A DNA stretch of 64,000 nucleotides from a virus (IMGVR_UViG_3300008107_000014:32001-96000); one strand, 5' to 3'. Counted from the stretch's first letter, positions 20,883-53,447 are shown. Program-made: numbers and translations. Notes: a model not told the origin generated them from the sequence alone.

Positions 20883-22020
20883 TAAAACAGGAAAGTTTCA
20901 TCACATCAAATATAACTGTGTTGCTACACTAGATAACTGGTCTCCAAACGACCCTGGAATATTCTATCATCATTTTTATGATGATCAACAACACGGTGTT
21001 AGATTTGCCAATTGTCTCGACGAAGTTCATTGGGAATATTTAAGAAATAATCCGTCTGCAAAACTGTTGCACGAAAATTGTGGCGAAACATTTAATATGC
21101 TATTTGTTGATGAGATATCAGAACTAATAGCTAATCACAACATTAATCCTTCTCAAATTTTTATTATTGTAGCCGATGAGTTACATAAATCTTTTTTAGT
21201 AACAAATTTGATTAGCCGAGACATTAACGGAGTTAATATTGAAATTTATAATTTTCTAATGAGTAAGGTATCAATGGATTCTTTTGATGTGCCTATTATT
21301 AAAAAATTTAGCGTATTGAGTCGTAACTATCGATCTTCTCGACTGCAACTGTATTGCAAATTGTTAGAGGCAGATTTATTAGACCAATTTTTATATTCGT
21401 TCTACAATATTCATCCATATGAAAAAACTATATTCTCTGTAAAAGATATGATATTAGATTTGCAGAATGCAACGGTGCCGGTAACTGATAAAATTATAGA
21501 GTGGTTATACGGTGTGCCTTATTCTATTAGCACCACTGATAATGTTTACGATAAGTGGGCCGATGTTACATATCAAACAGTAGCATCAGCTGATTTTCAT
21601 ATCATTATTGAAACATTCTTTGATCCGTTTTTAAGCCACATTAACGGAAAATATAAAAAAGGATATGCTCCTAATTTTATAACAGAAAAATTATATAAAC
21701 CTATTGCTTGTAAAAAACCATTTATTGTATTTGGTCCACAGTATATGCTTGAGGATCTACAATCGATGGGCTATAAAACATTCGATAGATTTATAAACGA
21801 ATCGTATGATATAGAAGAATCTCCCGAAAAACGTCTTGATATGATAGTTGACGAAATTAAGAAAATACTAGCTTTGCCAAAAGACGAATATCAAAATATT
21901 GTAAATAGTATGCAGGATATTTGCAATTATAATTATAATGTGTTAGCCGCTCAGAAAAATTACACTATTACAAATCCAGCATTTACTTTTATAAAAGATA
22001 ATACAGGATGGAAATACTAA
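20872..22020 (+). CDS. Putative glycosyltransferase-like protein (ITEK family, paralogue 2)
   Basis: ETFF..FITEKLYKPI..PFIVFG..GYKTF..NESYD. ATG 20872. Confidence 0.45.
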   Translation: MLYSKTGKFHHIKYNCVATLDNWSPNDPGIFYHHFYDDQQHGVRFANCLDEVHWEYLRNNPSAKLLHENCGETFNMLFVDEISELIANHNINPSQIFIIVADELHKSFLVTNLISRDINGVNIEIYNFLMSKVSMDSFDVPIIKKFSVLSRNYRSSRLQLYCKLLEADLLDQFLYSFYNIHPYEKTIFSVKDMILDLQNATVPVTDKIIEWLYGVPYSISTTDNVYDKWADVTYQTVASADFHIIIETFFDPFLSHINGKYKKGYAPNFITEKLYKPIACKKPFIVFGPQYMLEDLQSMGYKTFDRFINESYDIEESPEKRLDMIVDEIKKILALPKDEYQNIVNSMQDICNYNYNVLAAQKNYTITNPAFTFIKDNTGWKY

Positions 22021-22700
22021 ACTTTTTTAAAAATTTATCTAATACTGATAACTTAGCTGCTCAGTATACATCTGCAACTCCGCTGCCTCACGTAATTGTA
22101 GATAACTTCTTGCCGGATGAAATTTTTAAAAATTTATGTACAGACATTCGACAGTATCCTCCTAATAAATGGATTGTTAAACAGTTAAGCGATACTAGCG
22201 GAATTCGAAAAGAAGCAAGAGATTTTAACGATTCATATACTCTGCAAAACATTATGCTTAATCTTACTGGCCATAATTTTGTATCTTGGATGAATAAAAT
22301 AACCGGCGCTACTAATATAATTCCCGATCTCCATCATCTTGGCGCAGGATTAACAGCAGCACCTTCTGGTGCAACACTAGGGCTTCATGTTGATTTTAAT
22401 TGGAACGATACTTTAAAATTAAACAGAAAATTTAATTTAATTTTCTACGCAAATGATTCGTGGGAAGATTCGTGGAATGGTGAATTAGAGTTTTGGAATA
22501 AAGAAGGAACAAGTTGCCTTTATACAATTAAGCCAACTCCTAATAGATTGGTATTTTGGGAGTATGAGCAAGAATTAATACACGGATTTACAAAACCGTT
22601 AGCTTGTCCAGCCGGCGTTGAACGATTAAATTTAATGACAATTTACTATACAAGTAATGCATCGCCGACATCGGATCCTCATAAGTCTCGATTTTATTAA
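22008..22700 (+). CDS. 2OG-Fe(II) oxygenase
   Basis: LGLHVDFN (HxD), WNGELEFW, PNRLVF, IHG and distal R. Confidence 0.8.
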   Translation: MEILNFFKNLSNTDNLAAQYTSATPLPHVIVDNFLPDEIFKNLCTDIRQYPPNKWIVKQLSDTSGIRKEARDFNDSYTLQNIMLNLTGHNFVSWMNKITGATNIIPDLHHLGAGLTAAPSGATLGLHVDFNWNDTLKLNRKFNLIFYANDSWEDSWNGELEFWNKEGTSCLYTIKPTPNRLVFWEYEQELIHGFTKPLACPAGVERLNLMTIYYTSNASPTSDPHKSRFY

Positions 22701-22701
22701 T

Positions 22702-23292
22702 ATGGCAAATTTTCATAAGTATTCTATTCCTCATTTATTATATGCATCGTACAACAAAAGTGACGATATTATTGTAGAAATAGGTAGTGAGCGCGGAGAA
22801 GGTTCTACTAAATTTTTTGATACCTATTCTAAAGATTTAGGAATTCCGTTTTACAGTATTGATATAGAAGATAATGCAAAGATCCAACTCAGCGAATTAA
22901 AGCACACTAATTGGATAATTTCCTCAGGCTCGGTTTGGTCTAAAGAACAATTACCGTTATTAAATAAAAAAATCAAAGTGTTATATCTTGATAACTTTGA
23001 TTGGAATCATAATCCAACAATTCCAACAGAAACTGGGTTTGATAAATTATACGAGAAACATAATACTATCTGGACCAACTTAAATTGTGTTGCCGAGCAT
23101 CTTCACCAGATGATTAACTGTTTACCGTATATGGCCGAAAAGTCTATTATCATTTGTGACGACACTCCTTATCAAGATCACAGCGGAATCTATATTGGAA
23201 AATGTAGTGCAGTTATTCCGCTGCTTATAATTCACGGTTATACAATTGTTCACTCAGCAAACAACGGCGTAATATTAATTCGAGATTCCTAA
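22702..23292 (+). CDS. Class I SAM-dependent methyltransferase-like protein
   Basis: IVEIGSERGEGST motif I, YSID, LYLDNFD and IICDDT. Confidence 0.6.
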   Translation: MANFHKYSIPHLLYASYNKSDDIIVEIGSERGEGSTKFFDTYSKDLGIPFYSIDIEDNAKIQLSELKHTNWIISSGSVWSKEQLPLLNKKIKVLYLDNFDWNHNPTIPTETGFDKLYEKHNTIWTNLNCVAEHLHQMINCLPYMAEKSIIICDDTPYQDHSGIYIGKCSAVIPLLIIHGYTIVHSANNGVILIRDS

Positions 23293-24528
23293 GTGAGATG
23301 TTATTTTGATAATCATAGACAACTTAACATTAATTTAGTTAAGCAAATAAACAGCATACGATCGTTTGATGATTTTGAACTTAGGTATTGTCATCCTAAT
23401 TTAAATTTTACATATAGCACAAATTATGATTCTCAAGGAATATATCTTGTCGAAGTTAGCACACATGCGCACCTTTGGTGTAGTTCAAACCATCATAGCA
23501 ATAGTTTTAATTTAATTGAATCTATTCCTCATCACGTAATAGATGCTGCAAAACTAAAAAAAATACGAATAGTAATTATTGCAGTAGTCGAAGGGGATAG
23601 CTACGAAAACGATGGAGTAGATGCATACGAAGAATTAACTGCATCAATGTGGAAAATTGGACTACCGCAATATAGCGTACTAATTATTAGTGGCAATTTA
23701 AATGCAAATGCTCAATATTTAGAATGGTGTAATAAAAACGAAGAATTTCCTTGGATTGAATTCTCAGAAGGTATTGATTGGACAGGGCAGCGTAACTGGC
23801 CTAAACAAATAGATCCTATTTTTTCTAAATCTCTAACAACTGCCAAATTTCTTTATAACAGCTTAAATCGTGCTCATCGTAGCCACAGATCTGAGCACTT
23901 ATATTTTTTAGCACATAACAATCTATTGACAAACGGATTGGTATCCGGTGGCATATGGTTTAACGACATGCCTGGATACGATAAAAACTTAGACCTAATT
24001 TCGTCACCAGAATATATTGACGCATATATAGACAACTATCGAACAGTACTAAGAGCAAATTATCCAAAGACAGTCGATTCAAATGTAACTTCTCTACGCA
24101 ACAATCATTTTGCGGGAATAAGCAATTTGAATATTTTTAAGGATTCGTTACTAACAGTATCTACAGAAAGTCATTTTGATGACAATCAAGGTTTGTTTAT
24201 AACAGAAAAAACGTTTCGCCCTATAGCAATGGGACATCCGTTTATAGTATTAGGTCAGCCTAATCTTTTAAAAAAATTACAAAGTTTTGGATTTAAGACT
24301 GATTTTATTGATACTAGTTATGATGAAATTTTAGACAATAAAAAAAGATTCGCAACATTTCACGAATCTTTTTTAAATTGGATCAACGACGATAAAGAAA
24401 AATACTTTGCAAAATGGCAGTTATATGTTGAACATAACTTATACATATATCAACATACAAACTTTAGAAAACTATACATCGGCGATGCAGTAGAACGCAC
24501 AACTAGATATTTTAAAGAATTGTCTTAG
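23293..24528 (+). CDS. Putative glycosyltransferase-like protein (ITEK family, paralogue 3)
   Basis: SLNRAHRSHR and ESHF..FITEKTFRPI..PFIVLG..GFKT..DTSYD. Confidence 0.45.
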   Translation: MRCYFDNHRQLNINLVKQINSIRSFDDFELRYCHPNLNFTYSTNYDSQGIYLVEVSTHAHLWCSSNHHSNSFNLIESIPHHVIDAAKLKKIRIVIIAVVEGDSYENDGVDAYEELTASMWKIGLPQYSVLIISGNLNANAQYLEWCNKNEEFPWIEFSEGIDWTGQRNWPKQIDPIFSKSLTTAKFLYNSLNRAHRSHRSEHLYFLAHNNLLTNGLVSGGIWFNDMPGYDKNLDLISSPEYIDAYIDNYRTVLRANYPKTVDSNVTSLRNNHFAGISNLNIFKDSLLTVSTESHFDDNQGLFITEKTFRPIAMGHPFIVLGQPNLLKKLQSFGFKTDFIDTSYDEILDNKKRFATFHESFLNWINDDKEKYFAKWQLYVEHNLYIYQHTNFRKLYIGDAVERTTRYFKELS

Positions 24529-28368: not shown

Positions 28369-28820
28369 GAAACTTCTGCTTTACCTGGGGCAATTTTCTT
28401 AACGTCAACATATCCTGCCCCACGGCGATCCATGCTAACACCTTCCTCTTGTCCAATGTCTCCGCACAATGCACGGAACCATCGATCTGCAATTTCTTCA
28501 TCTGGATCACCATCATAGCCATATCCTTGCAACTTCAATTGTACAATAAACTCATCGTTCCAATCAAGCTCAAAGAATCCATTACGTAGATTGTCTTTGT
28601 TAACATGTGTGTCAAGTACAGCTACCCACGGCTCGCCCTTTTGTGTAGCACGTTCTTTAGGAGTTAACTTAGCTTCTGCTGCTTTTGCTTCAGCTGCAAT
28701 TGCTTCTTCTAAATGCTGTTTAGCAATACTCTTTGCAGTCTCTGCTTCTGCTAGTGCGTTTTGTGTTGCATCTTCTAATGCTTGTAAGCCTGTAATCTTT
28801 TTAAAGAATTGTTTAATCAT
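28365..28820 (-). CDS. Hypothetical protein
   Basis: TAATG-coupled to queE. ..NGFFELDWNDEF.. Confidence 0.6.
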   Translation of the reverse strand: MIKQFFKKITGLQALEDATQNALAEAETAKSIAKQHLEEAIAAEAKAAEAKLTPKERATQKGEPWVAVLDTHVNKDNLRNGFFELDWNDEFIVQLKLQGYGYDGDPDEEIADRWFRALCGDIGQEEGVSMDRRGAGYVDVKKIAPGKAEVS

Positions 28821-29674
28821 TAAGTTCCCCACTCATTTTTAAATAACGGTACTTGTAGTCTGTCGCTATAACGTAAACCGTTTTTCATTGCTAGTAATGC
28901 TACATTCTTATTGTTTAATGCGTAGACACTTTCAACACCACCTACCGGCATTAGATAAACATGTCCTTTAAAGCCTGCTTTGCGATATGCGGCAATAGCA
29001 CATTCGGCATCGGTAAAATCTTGTTCTGTGGCAATAACAAATTTCAAATATGCTGTACCGAAATTTTCGTATTCACAAACTACTTCTGGAAGAATTGCTT
29101 CTTCCCATTTCTCTCCACTACATGGTAGTTTAGCACTTACGCTAAATGTAACTTCTCTAGCAAAATCCATGTTAGGCATTTGCCATTCTACCAGATATTC
29201 TTTAAACTCTTCTGTTAGCTTTTGAGTGCCATTTGTTTCAAATGTAATCTCTTTCAAGCCTGACATCTTAGGGTGACTCAACAAGTCTGGATAAGCACGT
29301 TGCCAACCCAGCAATGGTTCACCGCCTGTGATAACAAGATGCTCGTCCTTCCAATGATCTTGCGGAAGTATTTCCATAATTCGATCTACGATAGCATCAC
29401 TTGTAAGCATTGGACTAAGATCCTTAAAACTAGGATGCCAGCTAGCATAGCTATCACACCCCGTAGAAACCAAAGGTAGTTCTTCATATTTGTTATATAG
29501 ATATGCAACTTCTGCAATATCTTCAGCTTCGTTGCTTAATTCACCACGACTCATGCCAAAACCTGCACATTTAAAGTTACAACCAAATGTGCGTAAAAAC
29601 ACAGAAGGCACACCCATGTAGCGACCTTCACCTTGAATGCTGTAAAACAGCTCTGCGATTTTAATTTTACTCAT
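28820..29674 (-). CDS. queE: 7-carboxy-7-deazaguanine synthase (radical SAM)
   Basis: ELFYSIQGEG..G.PSVFLRTFGCNFKC..GCDS, VITGGEPLL, ETNGT and RLQV. Confidence 0.88.
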   Translation of the reverse strand: MSKIKIAELFYSIQGEGRYMGVPSVFLRTFGCNFKCAGFGMSRGELSNEAEDIAEVAYLYNKYEELPLVSTGCDSYASWHPSFKDLSPMLTSDAIVDRIMEILPQDHWKDEHLVITGGEPLLGWQRAYPDLLSHPKMSGLKEITFETNGTQKLTEEFKEYLVEWQMPNMDFAREVTFSVSAKLPCSGEKWEEAILPEVVCEYENFGTAYLKFVIATEQDFTDAECAIAAYRKAGFKGHVYLMPVGGVESVYALNNKNVALLAMKNGLRYSDRLQVPLFKNEWGT

Positions 29675-29679
29675 ACGTT

Positions 29680-29708
29680 ATTATACACTCTTTTTTGTTA
29701 AAGTCCAA
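29680..29708 (-). promoter_or_regulatory. Sigma70-like promoter (TTGGAC-17-TATAAT), 5 nt before the queE ATG
   Basis: Spacing counted directly. No Shine-Dalgarno present, so possibly leaderless. Confidence 0.45.
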
Positions 29709-29854
29709 GAGCCATCCTTGTTATCTGTCCAAACAAGTGTATCTCCTTCTTTCCAACCTGCTTGTTCTAATAGCTCAGGCGGAAATGTTATTATTGCATC
29801 GCCGGTATCTGGATCTTCCTCAACCGGTACAGTCCATTTAGATAAGTTGTTCAA
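29681..29854 (-). CDS. Small AbrB/MazE/SpoVT-like DNA-binding protein (57 aa, not in ORF track)
   Basis: TTG start after AGGAG. MNNLSKWTVPVEEDPDTGDAIITFPPELLEQAGWKEGDTLVWTDNKDGSWTLTKKSV matches the swapped-hairpin pattern. Confidence 0.6.
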   Translation of the reverse strand: MNNLSKWTVPVEEDPDTGDAIITFPPELLEQAGWKEGDTLVWTDNKDGSWTLTKKSV

Positions 29855-30299
29855 CAGTTACTCCTGATTTTTCCAGAAACGTGATACCACTGGTATCCCT
29901 ATAAGTGTTCCGATATAAAACACTGCTAATACCACTTTGGTAGATAAGTTTGGCACAGTCCAAACATGGAGCATGGGTAATAAACATAGTAGCACCCAAA
30001 CCAGATTCGTTAGATTTAGCCAGTTTGGCAATCGCATTTGTTTCAGCATGTAATACCTCGGGTCTAGTTTTTAACTCACCGGTGTTGACTAACTTACTGC
30101 CAACACCGTATTCGGTTTGAAATTCTGTTACTTCATATTCACAGTTATTATCCCAACCTGCTGGCATACCATTGTAGCCAATAGAGATAATCCTATCATC
30201 TTTGGCTACGATTGCACCTACATGCAATCGCCGAGCATGACTAAGCTCTGCAAATGTCTCCGCAGTTTTCATGTATGCTTGTTTTAATTTTTGTTTCAT
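29838..30299 (-). CDS. dCMP deaminase
   Basis: VGA..IGYNG, HAETNAI and PCLDCAK zinc motifs. Confidence 0.88.
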   Translation of the reverse strand: MKQKLKQAYMKTAETFAELSHARRLHVGAIVAKDDRIISIGYNGMPAGWDNNCEYEVTEFQTEYGVGSKLVNTGELKTRPEVLHAETNAIAKLAKSNESGLGATMFITHAPCLDCAKLIYQSGISSVLYRNTYRDTSGITFLEKSGVTVEQLI

Positions 30300-30484
30300 T
30301 CGGGTAGGCTTGTAAAGCGTTGTTCAAAACTTTCTATATAGCAACTATATTCTCTAGGCTCAAGAACTTTGTCATCTCGATAATGAACCCATGTATGTCC
30401 ATCAACTTCAACTACATGGATTACAATAAATTTTTTATCAGTGCCTGAACCCCAACGACTTCCTGGTAAAATTTCTTTCTTCAT
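30296..30484 (-). CDS. Hypothetical protein
   Basis: ATGA-coupled small ORF. Confidence 0.5.
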   Translation of the reverse strand: MKKEILPGSRWGSGTDKKFIVIHVVEVDGHTWVHYRDDKVLEPREYSCYIESFEQRFTSLPE

Positions 30485-31014
30485 TTTGTCCACCACTCCT
30501 CATAAGGAAATTCAATCCAAACATCTTCTTCGGCTTTGTTTACTTCCATGCCCCAATAATTCATTGGAGCTTTACATTTACTAGATAGATTATCTACAAT
30601 AACTGCAAATCGAACATTGTTATTCCAAATTTCTTCCCATCGTTCGTCATTTGGAAAACAACCACTCGGCCAGTCTTCCATAATCCAGTTTAGTGTACTA
30701 CCTTGATCATTGATATCGTCTACAATAAGGATATTTTTTCTACCATCACCTGATGACATTGGGTCGTGATTGATATACCCAAACGCATCTTCTGCCATAC
30801 CTAGATTACTAACGCATTCGCCTCCGTCACGCAGACTAACGTCTAATGATTGCATGGGTACATTTAAGTAATGACTAATCATAACAGCAGGTAGTAGCCC
30901 GCCTCTAGTTAATCCCACAACATAATCAGGTTTCCAGTTGCTTAATGCAATATCTCTACAAATCTTATTGACTAGACCTTTAAAGTCGTCATTGTTAATT
31001 ACTAACTTTTTCAT
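30481..31014 (-). CDS. Type I phosphoribosyltransferase (xanthine/guanine PRT-like)
   Basis: VVGLTRGGLLPA, NILIVDDINDQGST (PRPP loop) and WIEFPYE. Confidence 0.8.
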   Translation of the reverse strand: MKKLVINNDDFKGLVNKICRDIALSNWKPDYVVGLTRGGLLPAVMISHYLNVPMQSLDVSLRDGGECVSNLGMAEDAFGYINHDPMSSGDGRKNILIVDDINDQGSTLNWIMEDWPSGCFPNDERWEEIWNNNVRFAVIVDNLSSKCKAPMNYWGMEVNKAEEDVWIEFPYEEWWTK

Positions 31015-31459
31015 ATCTTTCCTTAAGGTACTGCTCGTGTTGCACCCACTTATTATTAACTAAAAATCCCCATTCTCTTTTTTGAGGACCCGGCATAAAC
31101 AAAGTCCAAGCAGTTATTCCAGGAACCAATTCGATACGATGATAGCTGTGAGAACTGCATAAGCGGAAGTGACCAGGACCACGCCAATGCTTTGTTTCTC
31201 CAACCATTTTGCCATATTCGAAATTAGGAGTGTATTCATAGTAACCACCTTTGAGTATTAGTGTAGCATACGGCCACGGATGATCATGAACATCATCTGG
31301 GTCGCCCTTTAAAAACTTATGTAGGAATATATTAAATGGAAATGTTTTCCTATCTTTTAGAAACAAGTAATAGCGTTCAAGATACGGCTCGTCGCATTGA
31401 CGATCCATAACAATACGCTTACGACCTAGCCGATCTAAAAGATTAAGAAACCATTTCAT
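30995..31459 (-). CDS. Cupin-like protein
   Basis: HDHPW..LILKGGYYE..HRIEL metal-binding pattern. Confidence 0.55.
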   Translation of the reverse strand: MKWFLNLLDRLGRKRIVMDRQCDEPYLERYYLFLKDRKTFPFNIFLHKFLKGDPDDVHDHPWPYATLILKGGYYEYTPNFEYGKMVGETKHWRGPGHFRLCSSHSYHRIELVPGITAWTLFMPGPQKREWGFLVNNKWVQHEQYLKERYEKVSN

Positions 31460-31674
31460 TCTACATCCTCACTAAACCACTCGTCTACCATATCCTCGGC
31501 TTCGTCTTGTGTTAATGCAGGAACAAATAACCTTGCTGGTTGTCCTACAGTATGTTGAATATTAAAACGAACAATGCCAGTTGGAATTTGATCAAAGTCT
31601 CTTTCTACAATAAATTCTTGAAGATTCTTTGCACGATAGATTAAATGATCTGTTAGGTCTTTAGCTGTTGTCAT
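31456..31674 (-). CDS. Hypothetical protein
   Basis: ATGA-coupled to folE. Confidence 0.55.
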   Translation of the reverse strand: MTTAKDLTDHLIYRAKNLQEFIVERDFDQIPTGIVRFNIQHTVGQPARLFVPALTQDEAEDMVDEWFSEDVE

Positions 31675-32369
31675 CTTGGGGCAAACTCCTGTTGTAGTTT
31701 AATGTTGTCAAAGAATTCCTTCTTTGTATGAGGATCATTTTTAAATGTTCCTTTTAATACTGTAGTCTGTGTTAGACTGCTATGTGCCATGATGCCGCGA
31801 TTTTCACAGCAACCGTGTGTTGCTTGAATGTAAACTGCTACGTTCTCTGAGTCAGTAGCTCGGCTAATCTCGCGGGCGATGTCGTTACAAAGTTCCTCCT
31901 GGAGAGTACCCCGTCTTGCACACCACTGTGCGATTCTTGTGTACTTGCTAAGTCCGATAAGTTTTTCGGCAGCAATAATACCAATATAAGCAACGCCAGC
32001 CACAGGTTGGTGATGATGACTGCACATACTACGCAGCTCACTACGAACAACCAACATGCCTTCATAACGGTCTTGCGAGTCATTTGGAAACGCTGTTGCA
32101 TCTGGGGCTGCTTCATATCTACCTGCCATTATTTCGTTAAAGTACATTTTAGCAAGTCTACGTGCTGTGCCCTTGCTGTTGGGATCGTTTTCACGATCAA
32201 TAAGGAGTGCGTCGAGAACGCCTTCGAATGCTACTGTTGCTTCTTCAATAAGATAGTTTTTATCAAACTCATCTTTAACGTATTCGCTGATATTGTCACC
32301 AGCCCAAAAACGTTTGTTATCTCTTTTCATGTTTTCGCGGATAACTTGCGATAGATTTTTTTCTGACAT
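31671..32369 (-). CDS. folE: GTP cyclohydrolase I
   Basis: SMCSHHHQP, IGLSKYTR, LQEEL and HGCCENRG. Confidence 0.92.
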   Translation of the reverse strand: MSEKNLSQVIRENMKRDNKRFWAGDNISEYVKDEFDKNYLIEEATVAFEGVLDALLIDRENDPNSKGTARRLAKMYFNEIMAGRYEAAPDATAFPNDSQDRYEGMLVVRSELRSMCSHHHQPVAGVAYIGIIAAEKLIGLSKYTRIAQWCARRGTLQEELCNDIAREISRATDSENVAVYIQATHGCCENRGIMAHSSLTQTTVLKGTFKNDPHTKKEFFDNIKLQQEFAPR

Positions 32370-32405
32370 ATTTTCTCCGAGTTAATGTCGAGGATGACTT
32401 AGTAG

Positions 32406-33500
32406 TTATTTTAAGTTGTCTAGTAGTCGACTACAACTGAAAAAGTTCTCTCTTAAAACATCTACCTGTTTATTTAGGCTAGGTAGACGAGATTTATAAT
32501 TTTCCATGTGTGTGACAATTTCTCTACACACGTCCGGACGATACTTGTTATATGAGTTCCAGCTTTCTGTCCACTCACTAGGATACTTAAACACATCCAT
32601 GGCCATTTCGCTGTAGCTTAATCTATCCGGAACCATTGGGATTGCATCTACGATTGCACCTTCATACCAGCTAATACCTAAGGTCTCTTGTAAGTTTGCG
32701 CTGAACACTAACTTAGCTTCGCCTAATAAATTGTGATATTCACGTTTAGTTAATTGCTGTTCTTGACAGATGACAAATTCGTATTGCGGTAAATGTTCTT
32801 TTAGGTCACGGAAAATTTCAACTTGTTTTTCTGGGGCAATGCGATGTGGAAATAAAATAAGATCACGTTTTTCCATGCCTTTATACATAGACAACGTATC
32901 TTCCATGTATTCCATAGGCCATCCTGTGCGTACTACTTTATTATTGAACACAGTATCTTCTATCACAGTCTTATACATTGTTTGTCTACGATCTGGATCT
33001 GCTTGGATCAAGTTTTTGTAAAACATATGAATGTGAAAGTCAGTGGCAAAGTAGTTGTGATCAAACGCATAATAGAAACTCTTCTCAGCATGTCTAACCC
33101 AAGGTTTATCTCCTACAAGCCGTCCTAGGAAGTCTTGAGGATCATAACTGCCCGCATGCCATAGACCGTGAGTAGTTACTGGAATACTCAATAACTCACT
33201 CATGTACTTTAAGTTTATAATACCTGGATGCCAAGCATCAGTAAAAATAAAGTGATCGCCGGGATGAACGGCTCCGCTACAAAATAAACGGCCCATCTGC
33301 TCAACTTGACTAGCCTTGTATATATTAGTGCCGCCAAAGTTAAGAAACGCTCCCGGAGTGGTAGCACTAGGAATGTCCGTAGGACCTGATATAACGTTGA
33401 CATTGTGTCCCGCCTTTCGTAAGAGTGCAGGCAAGTGGGTTTTCCACTCGCCTGTGTACCTTGTTTCAACTGCTTCTAAATCAACAAGGTATATCGACAT
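32406..33500 (-). CDS. GT-B (GT4-like) glycosyltransferase, GTDC1/QTMAN-like
   Basis: FPHRIAPEK and QETLGISWYEG..PMVPDRLSYSE (Ex7E). ATG 33500. Confidence 0.75.
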   Translation of the reverse strand: MSIYLVDLEAVETRYTGEWKTHLPALLRKAGHNVNVISGPTDIPSATTPGAFLNFGGTNIYKASQVEQMGRLFCSGAVHPGDHFIFTDAWHPGIINLKYMSELLSIPVTTHGLWHAGSYDPQDFLGRLVGDKPWVRHAEKSFYYAFDHNYFATDFHIHMFYKNLIQADPDRRQTMYKTVIEDTVFNNKVVRTGWPMEYMEDTLSMYKGMEKRDLILFPHRIAPEKQVEIFRDLKEHLPQYEFVICQEQQLTKREYHNLLGEAKLVFSANLQETLGISWYEGAIVDAIPMVPDRLSYSEMAMDVFKYPSEWTESWNSYNKYRPDVCREIVTHMENYKSRLPSLNKQVDVLRENFFSCSRLLDNLK

Positions 33501-33730
33501 TATGAACGTGTCCGATAGTGTTGCTGTCCTCGAGGTTTCCACTCCTTTCGTTCGCCATTACGATCATTACGATCGAAGTGTCGACGAGGGCGTTTAGATG
33601 CCTCGTAAGATTGCCAAACTTTACTCTGGCGGTTATACAAATCTGCCGGATTATAAGGCAGAAGTTCTAATCTGCAAAAATCCAACAGGGCGTCGAGATC
33701 GTTAAAAATCTTCTCAACTTCAGTTTTCAT
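33500..33730 (-). CDS. Hypothetical basic protein
   Basis: AGGA RBS and Arg-rich tail. Confidence 0.55.
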   Translation of the reverse strand: MKTEVEKIFNDLDALLDFCRLELLPYNPADLYNRQSKVWQSYEASKRPRRHFDRNDRNGERKEWKPRGQQHYRTRS

Positions 33731-33745
33731 CGGTAGTTCCTTTAA

Positions 33746-34135
33746 TTAGTATTTGATGAATGAACCATTTTCTCCGTCTTCGGAGACCTCAATCCAAATC
33801 TCTCGACCTGGATACTTATTGGAAATGCTGTCATATAAATCACCTGACATCATTTCACAACTCTTGTAATCTAGTTGTAGTGTACCTTCTTTGTAAAGGT
33901 TTTCCAACCAGCGTTTAAATTGAATAAATTCAATATCGCGATCATCGTGTGTAACACTAATCCATACTTTGAAATGGAATGTGTGACGATGCGGATAACC
34001 TAGAAAACTTACATCATATTCGTCGCCTGTAGCAAGATTAGGATCTGTAAGTGCTGCTGGATATTTGTGAATACCTTCTTTTTGCAAGGTAACCCAAATC
34101 ATTTTGTTAGGACGAGTGTCTTGTCTAATAATCAT
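33746..34135 (-). CDS. queD: QueD-like 6-carboxytetrahydropterin synthase (T-fold)
   Basis: EGIH..HRHTFH..DIEF..SCEM..VSED pattern, located between folE and dpdA. Confidence 0.65.
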   Translation of the reverse strand: MIIRQDTRPNKMIWVTLQKEGIHKYPAALTDPNLATGDEYDVSFLGYPHRHTFHFKVWISVTHDDRDIEFIQFKRWLENLYKEGTLQLDYKSCEMMSGDLYDSISNKYPGREIWIEVSEDGENGSFIKY

Positions 34136-34359
34136 GATGCCAACAAACCCTTGCAAAGTTCTCCAATTTCTTCTTTAGTCATAAAGAAGTTATATGTACT
34201 TGCATGTTCTACGTTTCCGTCTTTATCAAGACATTCTTGAATAAAGTCGAGATTGTATAATCCTTTGGGACTAATTACTTCCCAAGTTTCTACACGCACT
34301 CTAAATGCACCATTATCTTTAATGGTAAAATTGTTAATTTTTAAACTTTCATGTAACAT
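34132..34359 (-). CDS. Hypothetical protein
   Basis: Coupled ORF. Confidence 0.55.
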   Translation of the reverse strand: MLHESLKINNFTIKDNGAFRVRVETWEVISPKGLYNLDFIQECLDKDGNVEHASTYNFFMTKEEIGELCKGLLAS

Positions 34360-34670
34360 TATCGTAATCCTTCCACTGTAATAATTTTGCTTAGTTCTTC
34401 GCCTAAGTCTTTATCATCCATTATAACATAAATTGCATTCTTATGTCTATCGTTTACGTTATCGTATTTGTTCAATTCAATAATAGTTCCACCAGTTGCC
34501 TTGTGTACTTTAAAATTAAATCCGTGATTGTCTATAGTACGTTCACTGCTCATAGAGATGCCTTTGCTAAGTCTAGGTCGATTTACATGGATATCTTCTT
34601 CACGAATTTTATCCCAGTCTTCGCGAACCCAGCGGACAATGATTTTTTTAAACCAGTTCATTTTCTTCAA
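34359..34670 (-). CDS. Hypothetical protein
   Basis: Coupled ORF. Confidence 0.55.
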   Translation of the reverse strand: MKKMNWFKKIIVRWVREDWDKIREEDIHVNRPRLSKGISMSSERTIDNHGFNFKVHKATGGTIIELNKYDNVNDRHKNAIYVIMDDKDLGEELSKIITVEGLR

Positions 34671-35196
34671 TACTCCATAGTTTTCCTTCAGATGATTCTT
34701 CTACATCAAACAGGCTGTTAAATTCATTGATCTGCATAGTTCGAATATCTAATCCCCACTTATGAAAAACTTTGTCTGCTAAAAACGAGTGTGAATATTG
34801 TTCAGACGGTATTCCAAAAGGACAGTTTCCACTATTTGCGGCAGAATATGGTTGTTCTAATTCACATTTAGTAATCAATAAATTTGATGATGTTATTATG
34901 TTGTTAATTGTGGTTAGTAATTCTTCTTCGGGAATTTTAAACATTTCGGTCTGTGATGAAATGTTATTGAGGTATTTGCCAGATTTATATATCAGGGCTT
35001 GTTTAATCTTTGATTCCAATCTGCCTATATCTCTAGGTGCTCCGAAATAAACATGATTAAGACTAAACTCCTTAGAACAAAACTTTTGTCTAGCTCTAAC
35101 AGCAGAATACGGCGTCATAGCTACTCCAATCTTTTTCCAATTAGAGTCTCCGTTTAAATCGTCGTGTATGTAAAAGAAAAAACTTTTTTCGTTCAT
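34648..35196 (-). CDS. Hypothetical protein, possible T5orf172/GIY-YIG-like nuclease
   Basis: FFYI..KKIGV..P..R..LESKIK..TEMF loosely fits the T5orf172 pattern. Confidence 0.35.
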   Translation of the reverse strand: MNEKSFFFYIHDDLNGDSNWKKIGVAMTPYSAVRARQKFCSKEFSLNHVYFGAPRDIGRLESKIKQALIYKSGKYLNNISSQTEMFKIPEEELLTTINNIITSSNLLITKCELEQPYSAANSGNCPFGIPSEQYSHSFLADKVFHKWGLDIRTMQINEFNSLFDVEESSEGKLWSIEENELV

Positions 35197-35744
35197 TTTA
35201 AAATCTCGTCCTTTCTATATTTGTCCCAGCTTGTAAACTTATCTCGTCCGAGCAAGTCGTGTAGGTTGTGACACCATACACCGGGATTAGTTGCATTAAA
35301 ATCTTTGTCGTCTAACTTAATTGTAGCATTATACCCTAGCTGTTGCAAATAGGGTAGCTTTACTGAAATTTGCGGAATGAACTGTTGCTTCTCTACAAGT
35401 CCGCTTTCTAACAATCCTTCAACATCTCTCACGTCAAGATCTAATGTACACCAGTATCCTGCTTCAAGACAAACGTATATCATATCTTCCCACGGACGCC
35501 ATGTGTCTACATCGTTAGTTCCATTAGGTTTAAAACTTTGATTAGCGCCAAAGTAGATATGTTTAATTTTTTTAGATTCGTCTACATATGACTTTGTATC
35601 ATCAGCAATATGCAATATTGTATACGGATCGTGAACGCCTACAACAAACAGTGTTTCCATTCCGTATGCAGGCGTAGTTTCAATTTCCTTACCTGTGAAG
35701 AAGGTAATAGATTCGGCTTTGCCGGTATTATAATCTCGTTTCAT
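35193..35744 (-). CDS. Hypothetical protein in the deazaguanine cluster
   Basis: ETLFVVG, HIYFGANQSF, KLDDKDF..TNPGVWCH, located near dpdA. Confidence 0.6.
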   Translation of the reverse strand: MKRDYNTGKAESITFFTGKEIETTPAYGMETLFVVGVHDPYTILHIADDTKSYVDESKKIKHIYFGANQSFKPNGTNDVDTWRPWEDMIYVCLEAGYWCTLDLDVRDVEGLLESGLVEKQQFIPQISVKLPYLQQLGYNATIKLDDKDFNATNPGVWCHNLHDLLGRDKFTSWDKYRKDEILK

Positions 35745-35911
35745 TTTGTCTTTCTAAAAAGATTTTTAATTGATTGAACTAGATTGTAATATCTAGCTTT
35801 ATACGGATCGCCAATAATTAAATCAATCATTGGCGGGTGGAGTGGACAGCGACCTTGTTTAAAGTCGCAGTCCGGAGTGTACTGCTTATTACAAACGGTA
35901 CAATGTTTCAT
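35741..35911 (-). CDS. Small Cys/His-rich protein (56 aa, not in ORF track)
   Basis: MKHCTVCNKQYTPDCDFKQGRCPLHPP... Fills the gap exactly, with an ATGA overlap. Confidence 0.5.
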   Translation of the reverse strand: MKHCTVCNKQYTPDCDFKQGRCPLHPPMIDLIIGDPYKARYYNLVQSIKNLFRKTK

Positions 35912-35913
35912 AG

Positions 35914-37470
35914 TTAGTCACTGTTAAGTTGTTGTTCTAGTTTACGAAGGTCGTCGTCATCTTGTTGATCAAAAATCGGTTGTCCGTCTTTATCGTATTG
36001 CAATTGTTTGTGTCCATCAACTATAAACAAACTATTAAATTCGTTATCAGCAGGACCGCCTTGTAGTCTAGCACCTTCTAATGCTTTTAAGAAACCTTTG
36101 GCATTAAAAATAAGTTGAAACGCTTCGTCTTTGGTTTTAGTATTAAACAATTCTTCAATGAATGTTGCAAAGTAAAGAATCTTACGAGGTACCCAATCAC
36201 TGTATTCAGTTTCTTTCTTACCTTCTAGACTCCACATGCGCCAATCTGGTTTGTACTTAGCACACTCAATGTCCATGTATTGCTGGGCACGTTGTACTGC
36301 CTTAATATGACACTCAACATTATGACCCATCATTAATGCATAAGCAAAACTATCCCAACTAGTTTTACCTTCTTTTTTAATTTTGTTTAACATGCCTGGT
36401 GCATAGTAACATACATCGCCCATTGCTAATCTACTGCCAACTTCACTTTCGAATGGGAACGGTATATCGGAGCCTGAAAGAGCCTTGGTATCTGGCGCTT
36501 TGTCCATGATAACTGACCATCGTTTGTTTGTGTGTTGAGCGTTTGTGTAGACAAGTCCATGTGCCGTTGCAATGAACGGTGAGGCGCAATCAAAAGAGAT
36601 GGTAAGTTCTTCATTAATGTGCTTTCGTATTTGACGTTGAATTAAAGTTAAGTAGCAAGACCAATCTAATTGAGCAGTGCCCAAGAAGTGGATCCAATTT
36701 TTGCCTTTCAGCAAACCGTCTTCACGCATCGTCATTAGACGTCTAAGCGTAATATCCATTTTACACATGTTAGCACCACCAAAGGCCCAACCTTCTGCGG
36801 CTTTATCACCCCAGACTTTTTCATCGCTAAATTCTTTAACACCGTTGTACCACGTCTCCGCAGTTTCCCAGTTACTACCTTGTAGCACGTTTAAGAACTT
36901 AGTAGTTTTACCGTCTCGGTTCTCTAAAAAGAACTTATTGTTAAATTTAGTTTTATTCAAACAATCGTCAAAATCTTTTAATCCTGTCTTAGGCGCATGG
37001 ATGTGATCGCAGGCCCAAGTAGGAACGTCTAACATCATTGACCAGTCTGCGGTAAGTTCAAGCCAACGAAGAATGTCTAAGCGTGTTTTGTTTGCACTAG
37101 GACCATCAAAGTTCAGCCAGTCAAACTTAAGAACACCTTTACCAATCTGATACCCACCTGAATCTCCAACAATAACAGTATTGTCTCTGTCACGTTGTTG
37201 AATCATTGCCTCTTGAATAACACTTTTTTCAAGATTAAGTTGTGCATGACCTGCTGAGTACAGACCGTATTTGTATGTAAAGTATCCTTGTTCGGGATTT
37301 AAAAAGTTCATGCCTTCAATGCCTCTATCAAATCCGTCGGGGATTCGATCCGCAGCAATAAATTCTTCTACACGTTGCTTTGCAATGTATGTGCTATAAA
37401 AAGAACTGATAGCTGGCAAGTATACTGCGTAGTCTTTCTGTAATGGTGATAAGTTAACTGGTGGTTTCAT
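35914..37470 (-). CDS. dpdA: DpdA-like (TGT-family) DNA 7-deazaguanine transglycosylase
   Basis: GDSGGYQ, MMLDVP, NVLQG, GWAFGG, IHFLG and SFDCASPF TGT-barrel motifs. Clustered with folE/queD/queE. Confidence 0.78.
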   Translation of the reverse strand: MKPPVNLSPLQKDYAVYLPAISSFYSTYIAKQRVEEFIAADRIPDGFDRGIEGMNFLNPEQGYFTYKYGLYSAGHAQLNLEKSVIQEAMIQQRDRDNTVIVGDSGGYQIGKGVLKFDWLNFDGPSANKTRLDILRWLELTADWSMMLDVPTWACDHIHAPKTGLKDFDDCLNKTKFNNKFFLENRDGKTTKFLNVLQGSNWETAETWYNGVKEFSDEKVWGDKAAEGWAFGGANMCKMDITLRRLMTMREDGLLKGKNWIHFLGTAQLDWSCYLTLIQRQIRKHINEELTISFDCASPFIATAHGLVYTNAQHTNKRWSVIMDKAPDTKALSGSDIPFPFESEVGSRLAMGDVCYYAPGMLNKIKKEGKTSWDSFAYALMMGHNVECHIKAVQRAQQYMDIECAKYKPDWRMWSLEGKKETEYSDWVPRKILYFATFIEELFNTKTKDEAFQLIFNAKGFLKALEGARLQGGPADNEFNSLFIVDGHKQLQYDKDGQPIFDQQDDDDLRKLEQQLNSD

Positions 37471-39443: not shown

Positions 39444-42110
39444 TTACTCAAAATCAAACAATTTTCCGAATGTGTTGTCACTGCGAGTTGAGCTGATGTC
39501 CCATTCCAAGACACCGATCAAGTTTTCTAGCTTTTCGTCGATAACTGCATTTTCCATATCAGCATCGTTAAAAGGCATGTCCTTAAACCACTGAGGTAAT
39601 CTAAGTTCATCTACAGGATACGCTACACTAGTATACCCCATTGGATTGTCTTTAATTTTACAAACAATTACTTTTGCACCGTCTGTAATATTCATTGAAT
39701 ACTTGTCATCCATCATACGCTTTAAAGTATTCCAATTCAAACTAGCACGGACATGTCCGGGCATATTTGTTTTTCCTGCTTTCTTTTCTTTGTTAGCGTA
39801 TTCTGTAATGTTGTTAGCACGTTTAGGACTACCTTTCTCCCAACCAGGTCTTGTTTTAAACTCAGTTCGAAAATTAGTAATGTATTCAAGCACATCTTCT
39901 TGGGTACCATTATTTAGGACCATAGTTAGTACTTCACTTAAAAAGTCTTGAATAACAACAGGCGTATCACTACGCTTAAGGTCTAAGCCCATGGCCTTAA
40001 TCTTACCAGGCTTGCCGTCTACGTCTGCTCGTTTGCCTTCCTTGTCATAGTAAAGTACTGCATATCGTTTCTTCGTGATGAACAGTCCGCGACTTGCAAC
40101 AATTTCACGACCAGCTTTAATAACTTCGCCACGTGACTTTGGACAATGAAATGCGTCTTGCATAAATTTAGGAAACGTATCGTTGACTTCTTCACCAATT
40201 TGATCATAGAGTTGAACAACACTTTCTTTGGTCCACGGCAATCGTCCAGCATCGATTTCTTTTCTTAATGTTGGATATGCTGTAAAGTAACATGAGTCAG
40301 TGTCACCGTAGATAATTGCTTTACCAATATGATTATTTTCACCAGTAACAATTTCGTTGACTTTTCCTGCCATATGTTGTGCAATTGCACGACCTGTTAG
40401 TGTAGTTGATTGTCCGATTCGGTTATCAAAAAATCTACAACCAGGGTTAAGAATAGCACCATACAAACTGTTAAGCAAAATCTTTTTAACTAGCTGACGT
40501 TTATCCCAGTATTCTTCTTCAATCTTATTGCCTGCTTTAATACAGTCTTTAAGTTTAGCCTGCATCTCTTTACGTTCGGCATACCAACGCTTTAGTAATC
40601 CAGGAATAATGCCTTCAATTTCGTAGGTAAAGATTGTGCCGTTGGCACTTAGCATCCAAGGTTGATTGCTGTCAAAGATTAAATCATATACCTGTGCCGC
40701 AGACAACGTATCGCTGCCTCCGTTTGCCCAATCAATGGTTAACTCACGTCCTACCTCTTTGGCCATGACACTTGTGTATTCTACTGCACCAAACATTCCT
40801 TCCCATGCAGCCGCAAAACTTTTACCTTTTGCAATCTCTGCATCGATATATGCCTTGGTTCCGTCTTGACGTAACTGTCCAATAATAGTTTCTGGACCCA
40901 TGTTCAATGCACGAATTGCTGAGGGATACAGTGAGTTAATGTCAAGTGACCCAATCCATTCGTGAATGCCCTTCTTTGGATATGCAACATACGCACCTGC
41001 CGCAGGTTCACTACCTGGCTCACGTTGTATACGGTTAGGAACAATCATTCCTCGGCGATGTGCCTCGTTAATAATAGCCTGTTCGGTTACAGCTACAGCA
41101 CCCATTGTCGTTGCCAACAGCACTGTGTTTTCATGAGCAATGGTATTTGCAAGGTCTAAGAATTTTAATTTTTTATCTAGCTTGTCTAACAGCAATGTAT
41201 CTTGCCTGTTGTATTCAATAAACTTACGGAAGTCTTCGTTATACAACTGATCTAGTGTACCTTCGTAGACTGTCTTTGTATCGCCAATTTCCATTTCTGC
41301 AATAGCATCAAGTCGATAAGTGTGACGTTCTTCATAGGTATACTTACGGTACAGTTCTAAGCTATCTAAGTGTACACGCCCAATAAAGTCATAGGTAACA
41401 GCAGCTTTACCATATTTTTCATATTCTCGTTTCTTTGGAAATTGATTCCATAGACAAAATCTGCGTGTGTCGTCTTTGCTTAGTACTTTAATGACACGAT
41501 TAACAGTGTAGGGAATATCAAAGCCTTCACTGTTCCAGCCACTTAATACATCCGCATCGTCAATTAAGTTTAAAAATGTATCGAGCATTTCTGCTTCGTT
41601 GTCAAACAAAAATGTATTAGGAAAGTCTTTAACTGATTCTTTGGCCTGCACCATTGAAATAGTCTTTGGCGGTATTGCCAAGGTGATTAAACTATCAAGC
41701 CATTGTAAGTATACTGTGATAGCTGTAATTGGCATGAATGCATCGTCTGGTGCCGCATAGCCGCGTTCTGGATCAAAGTCTACTTCGATGTCAAAGAAAC
41801 AAACGTTTAGTTTTGGAGCATCAACATTTAAATAGTTTTCTTCAAAACAACGGAATACAGGTTTAATGTCTGATTCGTATAGTTTCTTACCGCTATAAGC
41901 TCTTAGTTCTTTGTGGAGGTCTTTAAGGTTTCTGCAATTAACTCGTGTTAACGGTTCGCCGAAAATTGATTTGTGTTTTCCTCTTGAATCTTGATAATAA
42001 AAGAGGTGTTTTGCGGGGTATTCTTTATAGTGACGTTGCCCTTTTTCGTCACGCTCAACAACGTTGATAATATCATTATCGCGGTCGTAGAAAGCATCTA
42101 CGTAGCTCAT
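39444..42110 (-). CDS. Family B DNA polymerase (gp43-like)
   Basis: Exonuclease FDIEVD, GWNSEGFDIPY and YNRQD. Polymerase SLDINSLYPS, KILLNSLYG, YGDTDS and KKRY. Confidence 0.95.
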   Translation of the reverse strand: MSYVDAFYDRDNDIINVVERDEKGQRHYKEYPAKHLFYYQDSRGKHKSIFGEPLTRVNCRNLKDLHKELRAYSGKKLYESDIKPVFRCFEENYLNVDAPKLNVCFFDIEVDFDPERGYAAPDDAFMPITAITVYLQWLDSLITLAIPPKTISMVQAKESVKDFPNTFLFDNEAEMLDTFLNLIDDADVLSGWNSEGFDIPYTVNRVIKVLSKDDTRRFCLWNQFPKKREYEKYGKAAVTYDFIGRVHLDSLELYRKYTYEERHTYRLDAIAEMEIGDTKTVYEGTLDQLYNEDFRKFIEYNRQDTLLLDKLDKKLKFLDLANTIAHENTVLLATTMGAVAVTEQAIINEAHRRGMIVPNRIQREPGSEPAAGAYVAYPKKGIHEWIGSLDINSLYPSAIRALNMGPETIIGQLRQDGTKAYIDAEIAKGKSFAAAWEGMFGAVEYTSVMAKEVGRELTIDWANGGSDTLSAAQVYDLIFDSNQPWMLSANGTIFTYEIEGIIPGLLKRWYAERKEMQAKLKDCIKAGNKIEEEYWDKRQLVKKILLNSLYGAILNPGCRFFDNRIGQSTTLTGRAIAQHMAGKVNEIVTGENNHIGKAIIYGDTDSCYFTAYPTLRKEIDAGRLPWTKESVVQLYDQIGEEVNDTFPKFMQDAFHCPKSRGEVIKAGREIVASRGLFITKKRYAVLYYDKEGKRADVDGKPGKIKAMGLDLKRSDTPVVIQDFLSEVLTMVLNNGTQEDVLEYITNFRTEFKTRPGWEKGSPKRANNITEYANKEKKAGKTNMPGHVRASLNWNTLKRMMDDKYSMNITDGAKVIVCKIKDNPMGYTSVAYPVDELRLPQWFKDMPFNDADMENAVIDEKLENLIGVLEWDISSTRSDNTFGKLFDFE

Positions 42111-44029: not shown

Positions 44030-44818
44030 TTATTTATTATAATTTGAAAGGTATCTGTATAACTCTTTCTTAATCTTATTCCAAGACCCTTCCTTGCTAG
44101 TTTTAAGAAATCGCCCATAATATTCAAGAGCATTCCAAAGAACGTTTAAGTTAGGAACTTGTATGATTTTACTACCAACAACCGCATAATCTTGTCTTTG
44201 CGCCTGTTTAAGAATATTGTCAATTAATCCAATGCCCTTATCCCCCACAGCATTGTGTATGTCGTTGGCTATCTGCGCTACCCAAGCATCTCTTTCCATG
44301 TTATTCAGCATATAGATGTAATACTTGTCGCGTTCGTTGTGTGCCACAGGTGGCTGCTTTTTCCAAACATCTGTTTCGATGTCGTAAACACTATCATCGT
44401 CTGTTGCTTTTTTAATTTGACTTGTTCGCTGACTAGCGTGTGCAAATTCATGCACCATAATAGAACTTAATCTATCAATAAAATTCTTAGCAGTCTTTTC
44501 GTCTGTTGGTGCATGTGCTACATTTACTTCAACTGTAACAGTATGCTCTATTGGAATGCCGCTGATTTCGTGTTCTGCGTTAATAACAGAGTAGGCAACA
44601 TCCGGACGATCAAGCATCTTATGTTTAATTGACAGCTTGCGATCGATGTGTTGTTCTTTCCATGCTGCTAGTTCTCTACTGGCATTTAAATTCTTAAAGA
44701 ACTTGGTATACCATTCGAGGTCGTTTTTATAGTTGCCAATTTTAGCAACCGCAGTGGCAATCCATGGGCGTATCCATGATGTTTCTGTGCGTTCTTTTAG
44801 TATTTCGTATGATCTCAT
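44030..44818 (-). CDS. Zincin-like metallopeptidase-motif protein
   Basis: MVHEFAHASQ (HExxH) with downstream ERDA. N-terminus MRSYEILKE. Confidence 0.5.
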   Translation of the reverse strand: MRSYEILKERTETSWIRPWIATAVAKIGNYKNDLEWYTKFFKNLNASRELAAWKEQHIDRKLSIKHKMLDRPDVAYSVINAEHEISGIPIEHTVTVEVNVAHAPTDEKTAKNFIDRLSSIMVHEFAHASQRTSQIKKATDDDSVYDIETDVWKKQPPVAHNERDKYYIYMLNNMERDAWVAQIANDIHNAVGDKGIGLIDNILKQAQRQDYAVVGSKIIQVPNLNVLWNALEYYGRFLKTSKEGSWNKIKKELYRYLSNYNK

Positions 44819-52114: not shown

Positions 52115-52608
52115 TATTTGGTCTTCCTTAATTTTTTCATAGCTAATTGTAACTTCATCTGCGACACTTTGTCTACAAAACAAATGCCATCTAAATGATC
52201 GTACTCGTGTTGGAAGCATCTAGCAAGATAGCCGTCTATCTTTACCTCGTGCAAATTACCTTTTGAATCTTGATATTGTGCAACAATCCAGTCCGGACGT
52301 TTGATAGTTAACCATAAGTCTGGATAACTTAAACACCCTTCTTTGAATAATGCTTGCTCAGTACTGTATTCTAAGATGTGTGGATTGAATACTGCAAACG
52401 GCTGCGGGAATCCCGGAACATTATCACTGCCGATTACAAATACTCGCTTGTTCAAGCCAAATTGATTAGCAGCAAGACCAACTCCATGATTTGCAACCAT
52501 GAACTCGATCATTTCTTTTTCAAGTAATTCTGCATCACCGTCTGTTTTAAAATCCCACGCTATACTCGGTGTAGTAAGCGTATCATGAACACCTAATTTA
52601 ATTTCCAT
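52114..52608 (-). CDS. def: Peptide deformylase
   Basis: GVGLAANQ, EGCLS and QHEYDHL. Confidence 0.93.
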   Translation of the reverse strand: MEIKLGVHDTLTTPSIAWDFKTDGDAELLEKEMIEFMVANHGVGLAANQFGLNKRVFVIGSDNVPGFPQPFAVFNPHILEYSTEQALFKEGCLSYPDLWLTIKRPDWIVAQYQDSKGNLHEVKIDGYLARCFQHEYDHLDGICFVDKVSQMKLQLAMKKLRKTK

Positions 52609-53440: not shown

Positions 53441-53447
53441 AGTCTTC

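Follow-up and report, generated by a model that had tools for sequence, protein, structure and literature searches.

DpdA enzymes exchange guanine in DNA for a 7-deazaguanine, and FolE, QueD and QueE together make 7-carboxy-7-deazaguanine (CDG). A QueD paralogue, DpdL, has been proposed to decarboxylate CDG to 7-deazaguanine, a base found in the DNA of Cellulophaga phage phiST, and its signature, LxxxHRHxF, replaces the CxxxHGH of QueD (Cui, Hutinet et al. 2023, PMC10516641). DpdL and DpdA of phage ACP17, when placed by themselves in E. coli, gave no 2'-deoxy-7-deazaguanosine (dDG), and other enzymes may be needed (PMC10516641). Here we describe a 64,000-nucleotide stretch of viral DNA (hereafter the window; bases 32001-96000 of the 115-kb IMG/VR virus record IMGVR_UViG_3300008107_000014, CheckV completeness 33%) in which a DpdL-type gene cluster includes a glycosyltransferase (GT). 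The proposal that this GT takes part in deazaguanine modification of phage DNA is well supported by comparative genomics.

The source of the window is a freshwater jumbo phage distantly related to Pseudomonas phage PA5oct (Wroclawvirus), its nearest cultured relative (DNA polymerase 51% and RNase H 52% identical). The DNA of PA5oct is reportedly refractory to several G-containing restriction enzymes and a target of modified-G sensors (PMC12191111); the same paper notes QueE and PTPS homologues in this phage but leaves the structure of the modified G open. At locus EST35_0316-0322 of PA5oct, the genes run in the order polymerase, DpdA, GT, DpdL, phosphoribosyltransferase (PRTase), QueE and RNase H. 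The arrangement from polymerase to RNase H is common to the window phage, whose cluster differs by the insertion of FolE, a cupin and a dCMP deaminase. Between the two phages, DpdA (EST35_0316 in PA5oct) is 41%, GT 43% and DpdL 56% identical, and the window QueE shares 30% identity with the CDG synthase annotated in PA5oct. The PA5oct module genes are annotated as hypothetical, and neither GT nor DpdL was found in the passages of PMC12191111 consulted. The family-B DNA polymerase is intact in the window (888 amino acids (aa), 39444-42110), whereas that of PA5oct is split in two by a Hef-like homing endonuclease gene (locus L001, 2605-7831). A megablast search of phage genomes with the entire cluster returned no match.

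All sizeable open reading frames (ORFs) between 28820 and 37470 are co-oriented on the minus strand. In the order of transcription, they encode a 518-aa DpdA-type protein, a 56-aa Cys-rich ORF, the 183-aa protein p183, a 182-aa protein, two small ORFs, the 136-aa DpdL, a 76-aa ORF, the 364-aa GT and FolE, followed by a cupin, a purine PRTase, a dCMP deaminase and QueE (Table 1). A preliminary description of this DNA had reported a co-oriented cluster here with dpdA-like, queD-like, folE and queE genes and a GT-B enzyme at 32406-33500. The cluster itself, folE, queE, the dpdA-like gene and the GT-B enzyme have all stood up to closer analysis, while the queD-like gene proved to be something else.

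The motifs quoted for the GT are present in its translation. A model generated with AlphaFold2 (AF2) from a 58-sequence alignment (predicted local distance difference test (pLDDT) 93.4; predicted template modelling score 0.90) has a complete GT-B fold with two Rossmann-like domains. In a structural comparison using VIA, sucrose-phosphate synthase (SPS), BshA, MshA and GlgM matched this model with Z 24-25.5 (300-318 residues), and the wider set of full-length matches comprised GT4, GT5 and GT20 enzymes at Z 20.8-25.5. The diphosphate-binding pair R220/K225 and the donor-site residues E272-x7-E280 are conserved across 58 diverse family members. Used alone, the window GT gave no Pfam, PHROG or PDB sequence match, and the single-sequence PDB search returned noise only. 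Among its 58 relatives, 38 matched PF00534 (Glycos_transf_1) at E <= 0.1 (best 1.3e-8), and the homologue in phage BUDD scored 45.7 bits, above the gathering cut-off of 26.4; the window GT itself does not match PF00534. Based on the GT-B model, the GT4 fold matches, the Pfam-matching relatives and the conserved donor-site residues, the GT is predicted to be a catalytically equipped GT4-like enzyme. The family is large: clustering gave over 8000 groups at 90% identity and 1051 representatives at 50%. In the Atlas, its nearest clusters belong to GT1-domain families and are 95-100% viral. At least 590 IMG/VR stretches encode the GT, and at least 570 encode DpdA. Fused forms were sought as a clue to a partner, and none was found above 638 aa.

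In comparison with known enzymes, the best full-length matches are BshA/MshA-type GT4 enzymes (Z 24-24.7, root mean square deviation (rmsd) 2.6-3.5 A, 297-316 residues), which have the same donor-site motifs but are only 9-12% identical in sequence. In its N-terminal acceptor domain, the phage GT has aromatic and acidic residues conserved on its own account (W19, W90, Y99, H115, D120, D123, W134 and E139). The best profile match of the family, AmGGT (PDB 8xsg), was set aside as a bacterial glucoside glucosyltransferase with no DNA link. The phage GT resembles the T4 alpha- and beta-GTs and the 5mYOX-associated GTs in being a nucleotide-sugar transferase in a DNA base-modification cluster, presumably serving nuclease evasion. 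It differs in that those enzymes accept a hydroxymethyl group on cytosine or uracil, whereas the pathway in the window makes a purine analogue without a hydroxyl. A survey of phage DNA glycosyltransferases (bioRxiv 10.1101/2023.12.21.572611) covers only cytosine and makes no mention of purines. The T4 enzymes (GT63/GT72) were not among the best 50 Foldseek or VIA matches of the GT model.

The preliminary description had likened the GT motifs to GTDC1/QTMAN, the enzyme that mannosylates queuosine in tRNA, and had asked for a structural comparison with GTDC1/QTMAN and generic GT4 enzymes. This kinship is not upheld. Ordinary GT4 enzymes (SPS, BshA and MshA) head the structural matches with no specific relationship to QTMAN, and PF12038 (QTMAN_N), searched at E <= 10 against the genomes of the window phage, PA5oct, ACP17, Phosso and BUDD, matched none of them; at E <= 0.1 it matched 0/58 GT family members. 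The R-x4-K and E-x7-E blocks quoted as GTDC1-like align equally well to AmGGT and WlaC. Both the phage GT and QTMAN are GT4-type GT-B proteins with these donor-site motifs and a C-terminal Glycos_transf_1 domain, but the domain and motifs are common to all GT4 enzymes and thus do not discriminate. Both would also decorate a 7-deazaguanine derivative in nucleic acid. The acceptor of QTMAN is the cyclopentenediol of queuosine in tRNA, whereas the target of the phage GT would be DNA or a free base. The phage would be unable to make that cyclopentenediol, since its record contains no QueC and no TGT-family Pfam match. The partners of the GT are the DNA-directed DpdA and DpdL, a context that argues against a queuosine-tRNA acceptor. 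A literature search combining QTMAN with bacteriophage found nothing.

The role of the GT was approached through its gene neighbourhood. IMG/VR was scanned using distant members of the GT family as seeds, and the 37 diverse loci flanked by at least 8 kb on each side were counted. DpdL and DpdA were each present within 10 kb in 37/37 loci; QueE was present in 36/37 and FolE in 34/37. These GTs are 30-76% identical to that of the window and form 31 clusters at 90%, 10 at 70% and 3 at 50% identity. Compact five-gene modules consisting of DpdA, DpdL, GT, FolE and QueE occur (e.g. loci L133 and L135). The module is also found in at least six groups of cultured phages, namely PA5oct-like phages, ACP17, Phosso, BUDD/X1, BCSR5 and BUCT-ZZ01. 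DpdA, GT and DpdL are consecutive in PA5oct-like phages, with QueE 1.8 kb downstream. The order in ACP17 is QueD, FolE, p183 homologue, DpdA, GT, DpdL and QueE, with genes that overlap or abut and QueE only 4 bp downstream. DpdL overlaps the start of the GT in Phosso and is followed by FolE and QueE; BUDD has FolE, GT, DpdA, DpdL and QueE; BUCT-ZZ01, a cyanophage, has DpdA, DpdL and GT in a row; and in BCSR5 the GT and DpdL lie 2.8 kb apart. Linkage of the GT to dpdA in related phages, a test set beforehand, was therefore found both in cultured phages and in the IMG/VR loci. A GT profile search of the whole genomes of VH7D and Ps15, whose DpdA systems are of the QueC/QueF type, found no GT, while the same search was positive in BUCT-ZZ01. 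Within the searches made, the GT was always accompanied by DpdL, DpdL was sometimes found without the GT, and the GT was never seen with QueC. From this conservation and the predicted fold, we infer that the GT belongs integrally to the module and is catalytically competent.

Two variant arrangements were seen. The DpdA-DpdL pair of the Synechococcus phage BUCT-ZZ01 has a GT-B gene on either side (locus L175, 4665-6008 and 7656-8822). The downstream gene belongs to the family studied here (hidden Markov model (HMM) match 5e-42), and the upstream 447-aa protein matches Glyco_trans_1_4 at 3.4e-5; a disaccharide is possible in this phage. In the Xanthomonas phages PhiXhv and Ep026, a distant GT branch (25% identity) lies beside GlmS and a PIG-L/BshB-like deacetylase, and at the PhiXhv-12 locus (L086, 5669-8903) no deazaguanine genes are nearby. 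This branch may serve an amino-sugar pathway with a different acceptor.

The queD-like gene of the preliminary description, at 33746-34156, is by its signature DpdL and not QueD. Its motif LGYPHRHTF fits the DpdL signature, the catalytic Cys is absent, and Pfam gave no match, PTPS included. It is 72% identical to the GT-adjacent ORF of Phosso, 55% to that of ACP17 and 53% to that of BUDD, in addition to the homologue in PA5oct, and 31% identical to phiST DpdL (tblastn, E 2e-7); the DpdL HMM matches phiST gp040 at 2.6e-19. The likely start codon is an internal ATG, near 34135 or 34105. The true PTPS/QueD gene lies outside the window (G000:C1:111958-112470), about 44 kb away. QueC was not detected in the window's record, which is 33% complete, nor in PA5oct, ACP17 or Phosso. 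In place of the plain CDG pathway that had been suggested, the cluster encodes a QueC-less, DpdL-type pathway of the kind that gives dDG in phiST (PMC10516641). The phiST DpdL/DpdA3 system is similar in combining QueC-less FolE, QueD, QueE and DpdL with a divergent DpdA (PMC10516641), but the whole phiST genome lacks a GT-family gene. The window DpdA is also of a different, longer subfamily, with no link to phiST by BLAST. In Vibrio phage Bakedbeans, gp176 (locus L178, 5182-6363) carries about 265 aa fused N-terminally to DpdL, a domain with neither a Pfam match nor a homologue among the loci collected. This domain may point to the real partner or substrate of DpdL.

The 518-aa protein is regarded as a divergent DpdA subfamily on account of its TGT motifs, its fold ranking, its match to the DpdA profile and the deazaguanine setting of a relative in Vibrio phage 2.275.O. 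The motifs DSGGYQ, NVLQGS, GWAFGG, FLGTA and SFDC do not vary among 20 homologues. Modelling with AF2 gave a poor result (pLDDT 52.5), yet the top three of 48,161 chains in the VIA comparison were QTRT2, ArcTGT and TGT (Z 11.3, 10.7 and 10.5; rmsd 5.1-5.3 A over 251-263 residues), with DpdA 7ui4 at Z 9.9. A profile of 55 family members aligned to the phage DpdA family (ACP17, BUDD, VH7D and Ps15) in hhalign with a probability of 89.6% (E 1.9e-6, 197 columns). PF01702 (TGT) matched neither the 518-aa protein, nor its 20 homologues, nor anything in the genome; because the annotated DpdAs of ACP17 and BUDD likewise have no Pfam match, this model appears insensitive to phage DpdAs. PDB searches using the single sequence and the family profile returned only noise and nothing, respectively. 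The same long DpdA subfamily occurs in phage 2.275.O (locus L176, 6908-8698) beside QueF, a YhhQ-like transporter, QueC, Gat and FolE, and the 15.5-kb region around that dpdA contains no GT or DpdL. Since it is also found in this QueC/QueF setting, the long subfamily is evidently not tied to one deazaguanine product.

Taken together, these observations incline us, somewhat more than evenly, to the view that the virion DNA carries a glycosylated 7-deazaguanine. CDG would first be produced by FolE and QueE together with QueD, whose gene is located in another part of the genome; DpdL would then generate 7-deazaguanine from it, the role proposed for DpdL in PMC10516641. The divergent DpdA, as its family suggests, would then swap guanine in the phage DNA for 7-deazaguanine, and the GT, with a nucleotide sugar as donor, would glycosylate the deazaguanine, whether as the free base ahead of insertion or once it is in DNA. 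The resulting base would shield virion DNA from restriction. The acceptor is probably the product of DpdL and not CDG or preQ0, because the GT is confined to settings with DpdL and is never seen beside QueC; and since the compact modules have no other tailoring enzyme, the acceptor should be what FolE, QueD, QueE and DpdL make. Attachment at or near C7 is favoured because C7-H is the only new feature of 7-deazaguanine relative to guanine, and a sugar on N2, O6 or N1 is disfavoured because the deaza pathway would not be needed for it. The small-molecule GT4 enzymes among the structural neighbours favour glycosylation of the free base; the nucleic-acid glycosylations known to us (T4, base J and QTMAN) all act on the polymer.

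The boldest consistent reading, to which we assign a rather low probability, is that the sugar forms a C-glycoside directly on C7 of 7-deazaguanine. Decarboxylation by DpdL would free an electron-rich pyrrole carbon, which would capture the oxocarbenium-like transition state of a GT4 enzyme. Such a linkage would explain both the restriction of the GT to DpdL-type clusters, never with QueC, and the lack of a handle-forming enzyme in the five-gene modules. The cupin was considered as a universal oxygenase forming such a handle and was rejected, as it is present in only 9/37 loci.

Several observations weigh against a glycosylated 7-deazaguanine in DNA. 7-Deazaguanine, which has no hydroxyl or carboxyl handle, offers no obvious acceptor for O-glycosylation, and we know of no precedent for a GT4 enzyme forming a C- or N-glycoside. 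The closest folds are those of small-molecule GT4 enzymes and not the T4 DNA glucosyltransferases. The GT family is acidic (median isoelectric point 5.8), although the isoelectric point fails to discriminate DNA targets from small-molecule targets since DpdA is acidic too. No dedicated nucleotide-sugar pathway adjoins the GT in the window. The preliminary description had mentioned nucleotide-sugar enzymes in the window, of which one epimerase was recovered and no others; it lies on the opposite strand to the GT, 11.5 kb away, and it may have a role in donor supply. The decarboxylase role of DpdL is itself a proposal by others. Finally, the profile search found no GT in the DpdL-bearing phages phiST, RHph_I1_18, Ahp1, Bakedbeans and D479, and with at least five DpdL lineages lacking it, the sugar would be an add-on. 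No description of a glycosylated deazaguanine in DNA was found in the literature searched, which is weak evidence of absence as most subscription journals lay outside its coverage.

Among other explanations, the sole substrate of the GT might be a small molecule of the pathway in its free form, whether CDG, the 7-deazaguanine base or a pterin intermediate, and its product would not be the final DNA base. The sugar could then be a transient protecting or solubilising group, could keep the base from the host tRNA TGT, or could form part of a glycosylated pterin, of which cyanobacterial biopterin glucoside is an example. The best structural neighbours (BshA, MshA, SPS, GlgM, OtsA and LmbT) do glycosylate small molecules, FolE and QueD-family enzymes make pterins, the acidity of the GT family fits, and a tetrahydrobiopterin glucosyltransferase (9v0l) matches the GT at Z 20.8. 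This last enzyme ranks only 50th, however, no closer than dozens of GT4 enzymes, and the presence of DpdA at every full-flank locus, often in overlapping genes, ties the GT to DNA base exchange and not to pterin metabolism. The unusual G in PA5oct DNA (PMC12191111) also runs counter to a purely small-molecule role, which we consider fairly unlikely.

We give still less credence to an unrelated target, whether a hydroxymethyl-pyrimidine, a phage or host protein or the envelope, with the GT placed in the cluster through the dense packing of early and DNA-metabolism genes. The PhiXhv/Ep026 branch, away from any deazaguanine genes, is in keeping with such a target, as is the presence of a ThyA-family gene in each of PA5oct and Phosso. 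No ThyA-family gene was found in ACP17 or BUDD, making a hydroxymethyl-pyrimidine acceptor unlikely there, and packing would hardly account for an adjacency to DpdL that is kept in jumbo phages, T4-like phages and cyanophages despite shuffled gene order, for the complete co-occurrence in the 37 IMG/VR loci, or for the absence of the GT from QueC-type DpdA phages. Equally improbable in our judgement is a route at the nucleotide level, where toyocamycin/tubercidin biosynthesis works. Here the PRTase would make a deazaguanine nucleotide, the polymerase would incorporate it, and the GT would modify the nucleotide or the DNA. A Gpt/HGPRT-like PRTase is translationally coupled within the cluster, and a PRTase is found in 21/37 loci and in the deazaguanine clusters of PA5oct, BUCT-ZZ01 and Ps15. 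Against this, DpdA is always present, whereas the PRTase is missing from 16/37 loci and from ACP17. Because Ps15 is of the QueC type, the PRTase is not specific to the GT and is most simply seen as a salvage enzyme for the guanine released by base exchange.

The protein p183, which had no Pfam or PHROG match and no convincing Atlas match, is 31% identical to a 161-aa ORF immediately upstream of DpdA in ACP17, and is optional among the full-flank loci (21/37). The cupin ORF overlaps the start of the PRTase by 20 nt. The dCMP deaminase belongs to general nucleotide metabolism and is not conserved with the module.

Table 1. Genes of the deazaguanine cluster and a nucleotide-sugar gene in the window
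Feature	Position	Strand	Evidence or remark
DpdA-type DNA guanine transglycosylase, 518 aa (divergent subfamily "DpdAx")	35914-37470	-	motifs, fold, hhalign
Cys-rich 56-aa ORF (CxxC ... C ... C), possibly zinc ribbon	35741-35911	-	directly downstream of dpdA
p183, conserved 183-aa partner	35193-35744	-	ACP17 homologue
DpdL, QueD paralogue, proposed CDG decarboxylase	33746-34156	-	LGYPHRHTF motif, phiST DpdL homology
Predicted GT-B, GT4-like retaining-type glycosyltransferase, 364 aa	32406-33500	-	AF2 model, motifs, family Pfam matches
FolE, GTP cyclohydrolase I	31671-32369	-	PF01227 2.2e-40; phrog_2197 2e-45
Small cupin	30995-31459	-	phrog_4786 1.6e-37; PDB cupin_2 matches weak
Purine (Gpt/HGPRT-like) PRTase	30481-31014	-	PF00156 2.7e-11; PDB 1vdm 1.3e-9, 4trb 3e-5
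dCMP deaminase	29838-30299	-	PF00383 3.9e-21; phrog_174 1e-50
QueE, 7-carboxy-7-deazaguanine synthase, radical S-adenosylmethionine (SAM)	28820-29674	-	phrog_2076 5.3e-50; PDB CDG synthases 6nhl, 4njg
Nucleotide-sugar epimerase/dehydratase	19920-20882	+	PF01370 6e-45; phrog_540 7e-76

Elsewhere in the window, the epimerase shares a plus-strand block (16160-24528) with a 454-aa radical SAM protein (17262-18626), the remainder of the block being unannotatable; it may represent a second sugar or modification pathway. A probable endolysin with a LysM domain and a GH19 chitinase-like domain is encoded at 44815-45975. Two chaperone genes, at 49814-52219 and 52598-53476, encode a ClpB-like double AAA+ protein (AAA_2 3.5e-57, ClpB_D2-small) and a complete DnaJ with both J domain and DnaJ_C, respectively.

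The DNA glycosylations named in the literature searched are all on pyrimidines, and a sugar on a purine analogue, if true, would constitute a new class of natural DNA base. Were it a C7 C-glycoside, it would be without precedent both as a glycosylated purine in DNA and as a C-glycosidic hypermodification of a base. A requirement for the GT may explain the absence of dDG when ACP17 DpdL and DpdA were expressed in E. coli (PMC10516641). The family is very abundant, with thousands of metagenomic members, and a glycosylated deazaguanine, if true, would bear on restriction, CRISPR and glycosylase-based defences and on the sequencing and cloning of such phages. It would equally bear on phage-therapy candidates such as PA5oct with its modified G (PMC12191111).

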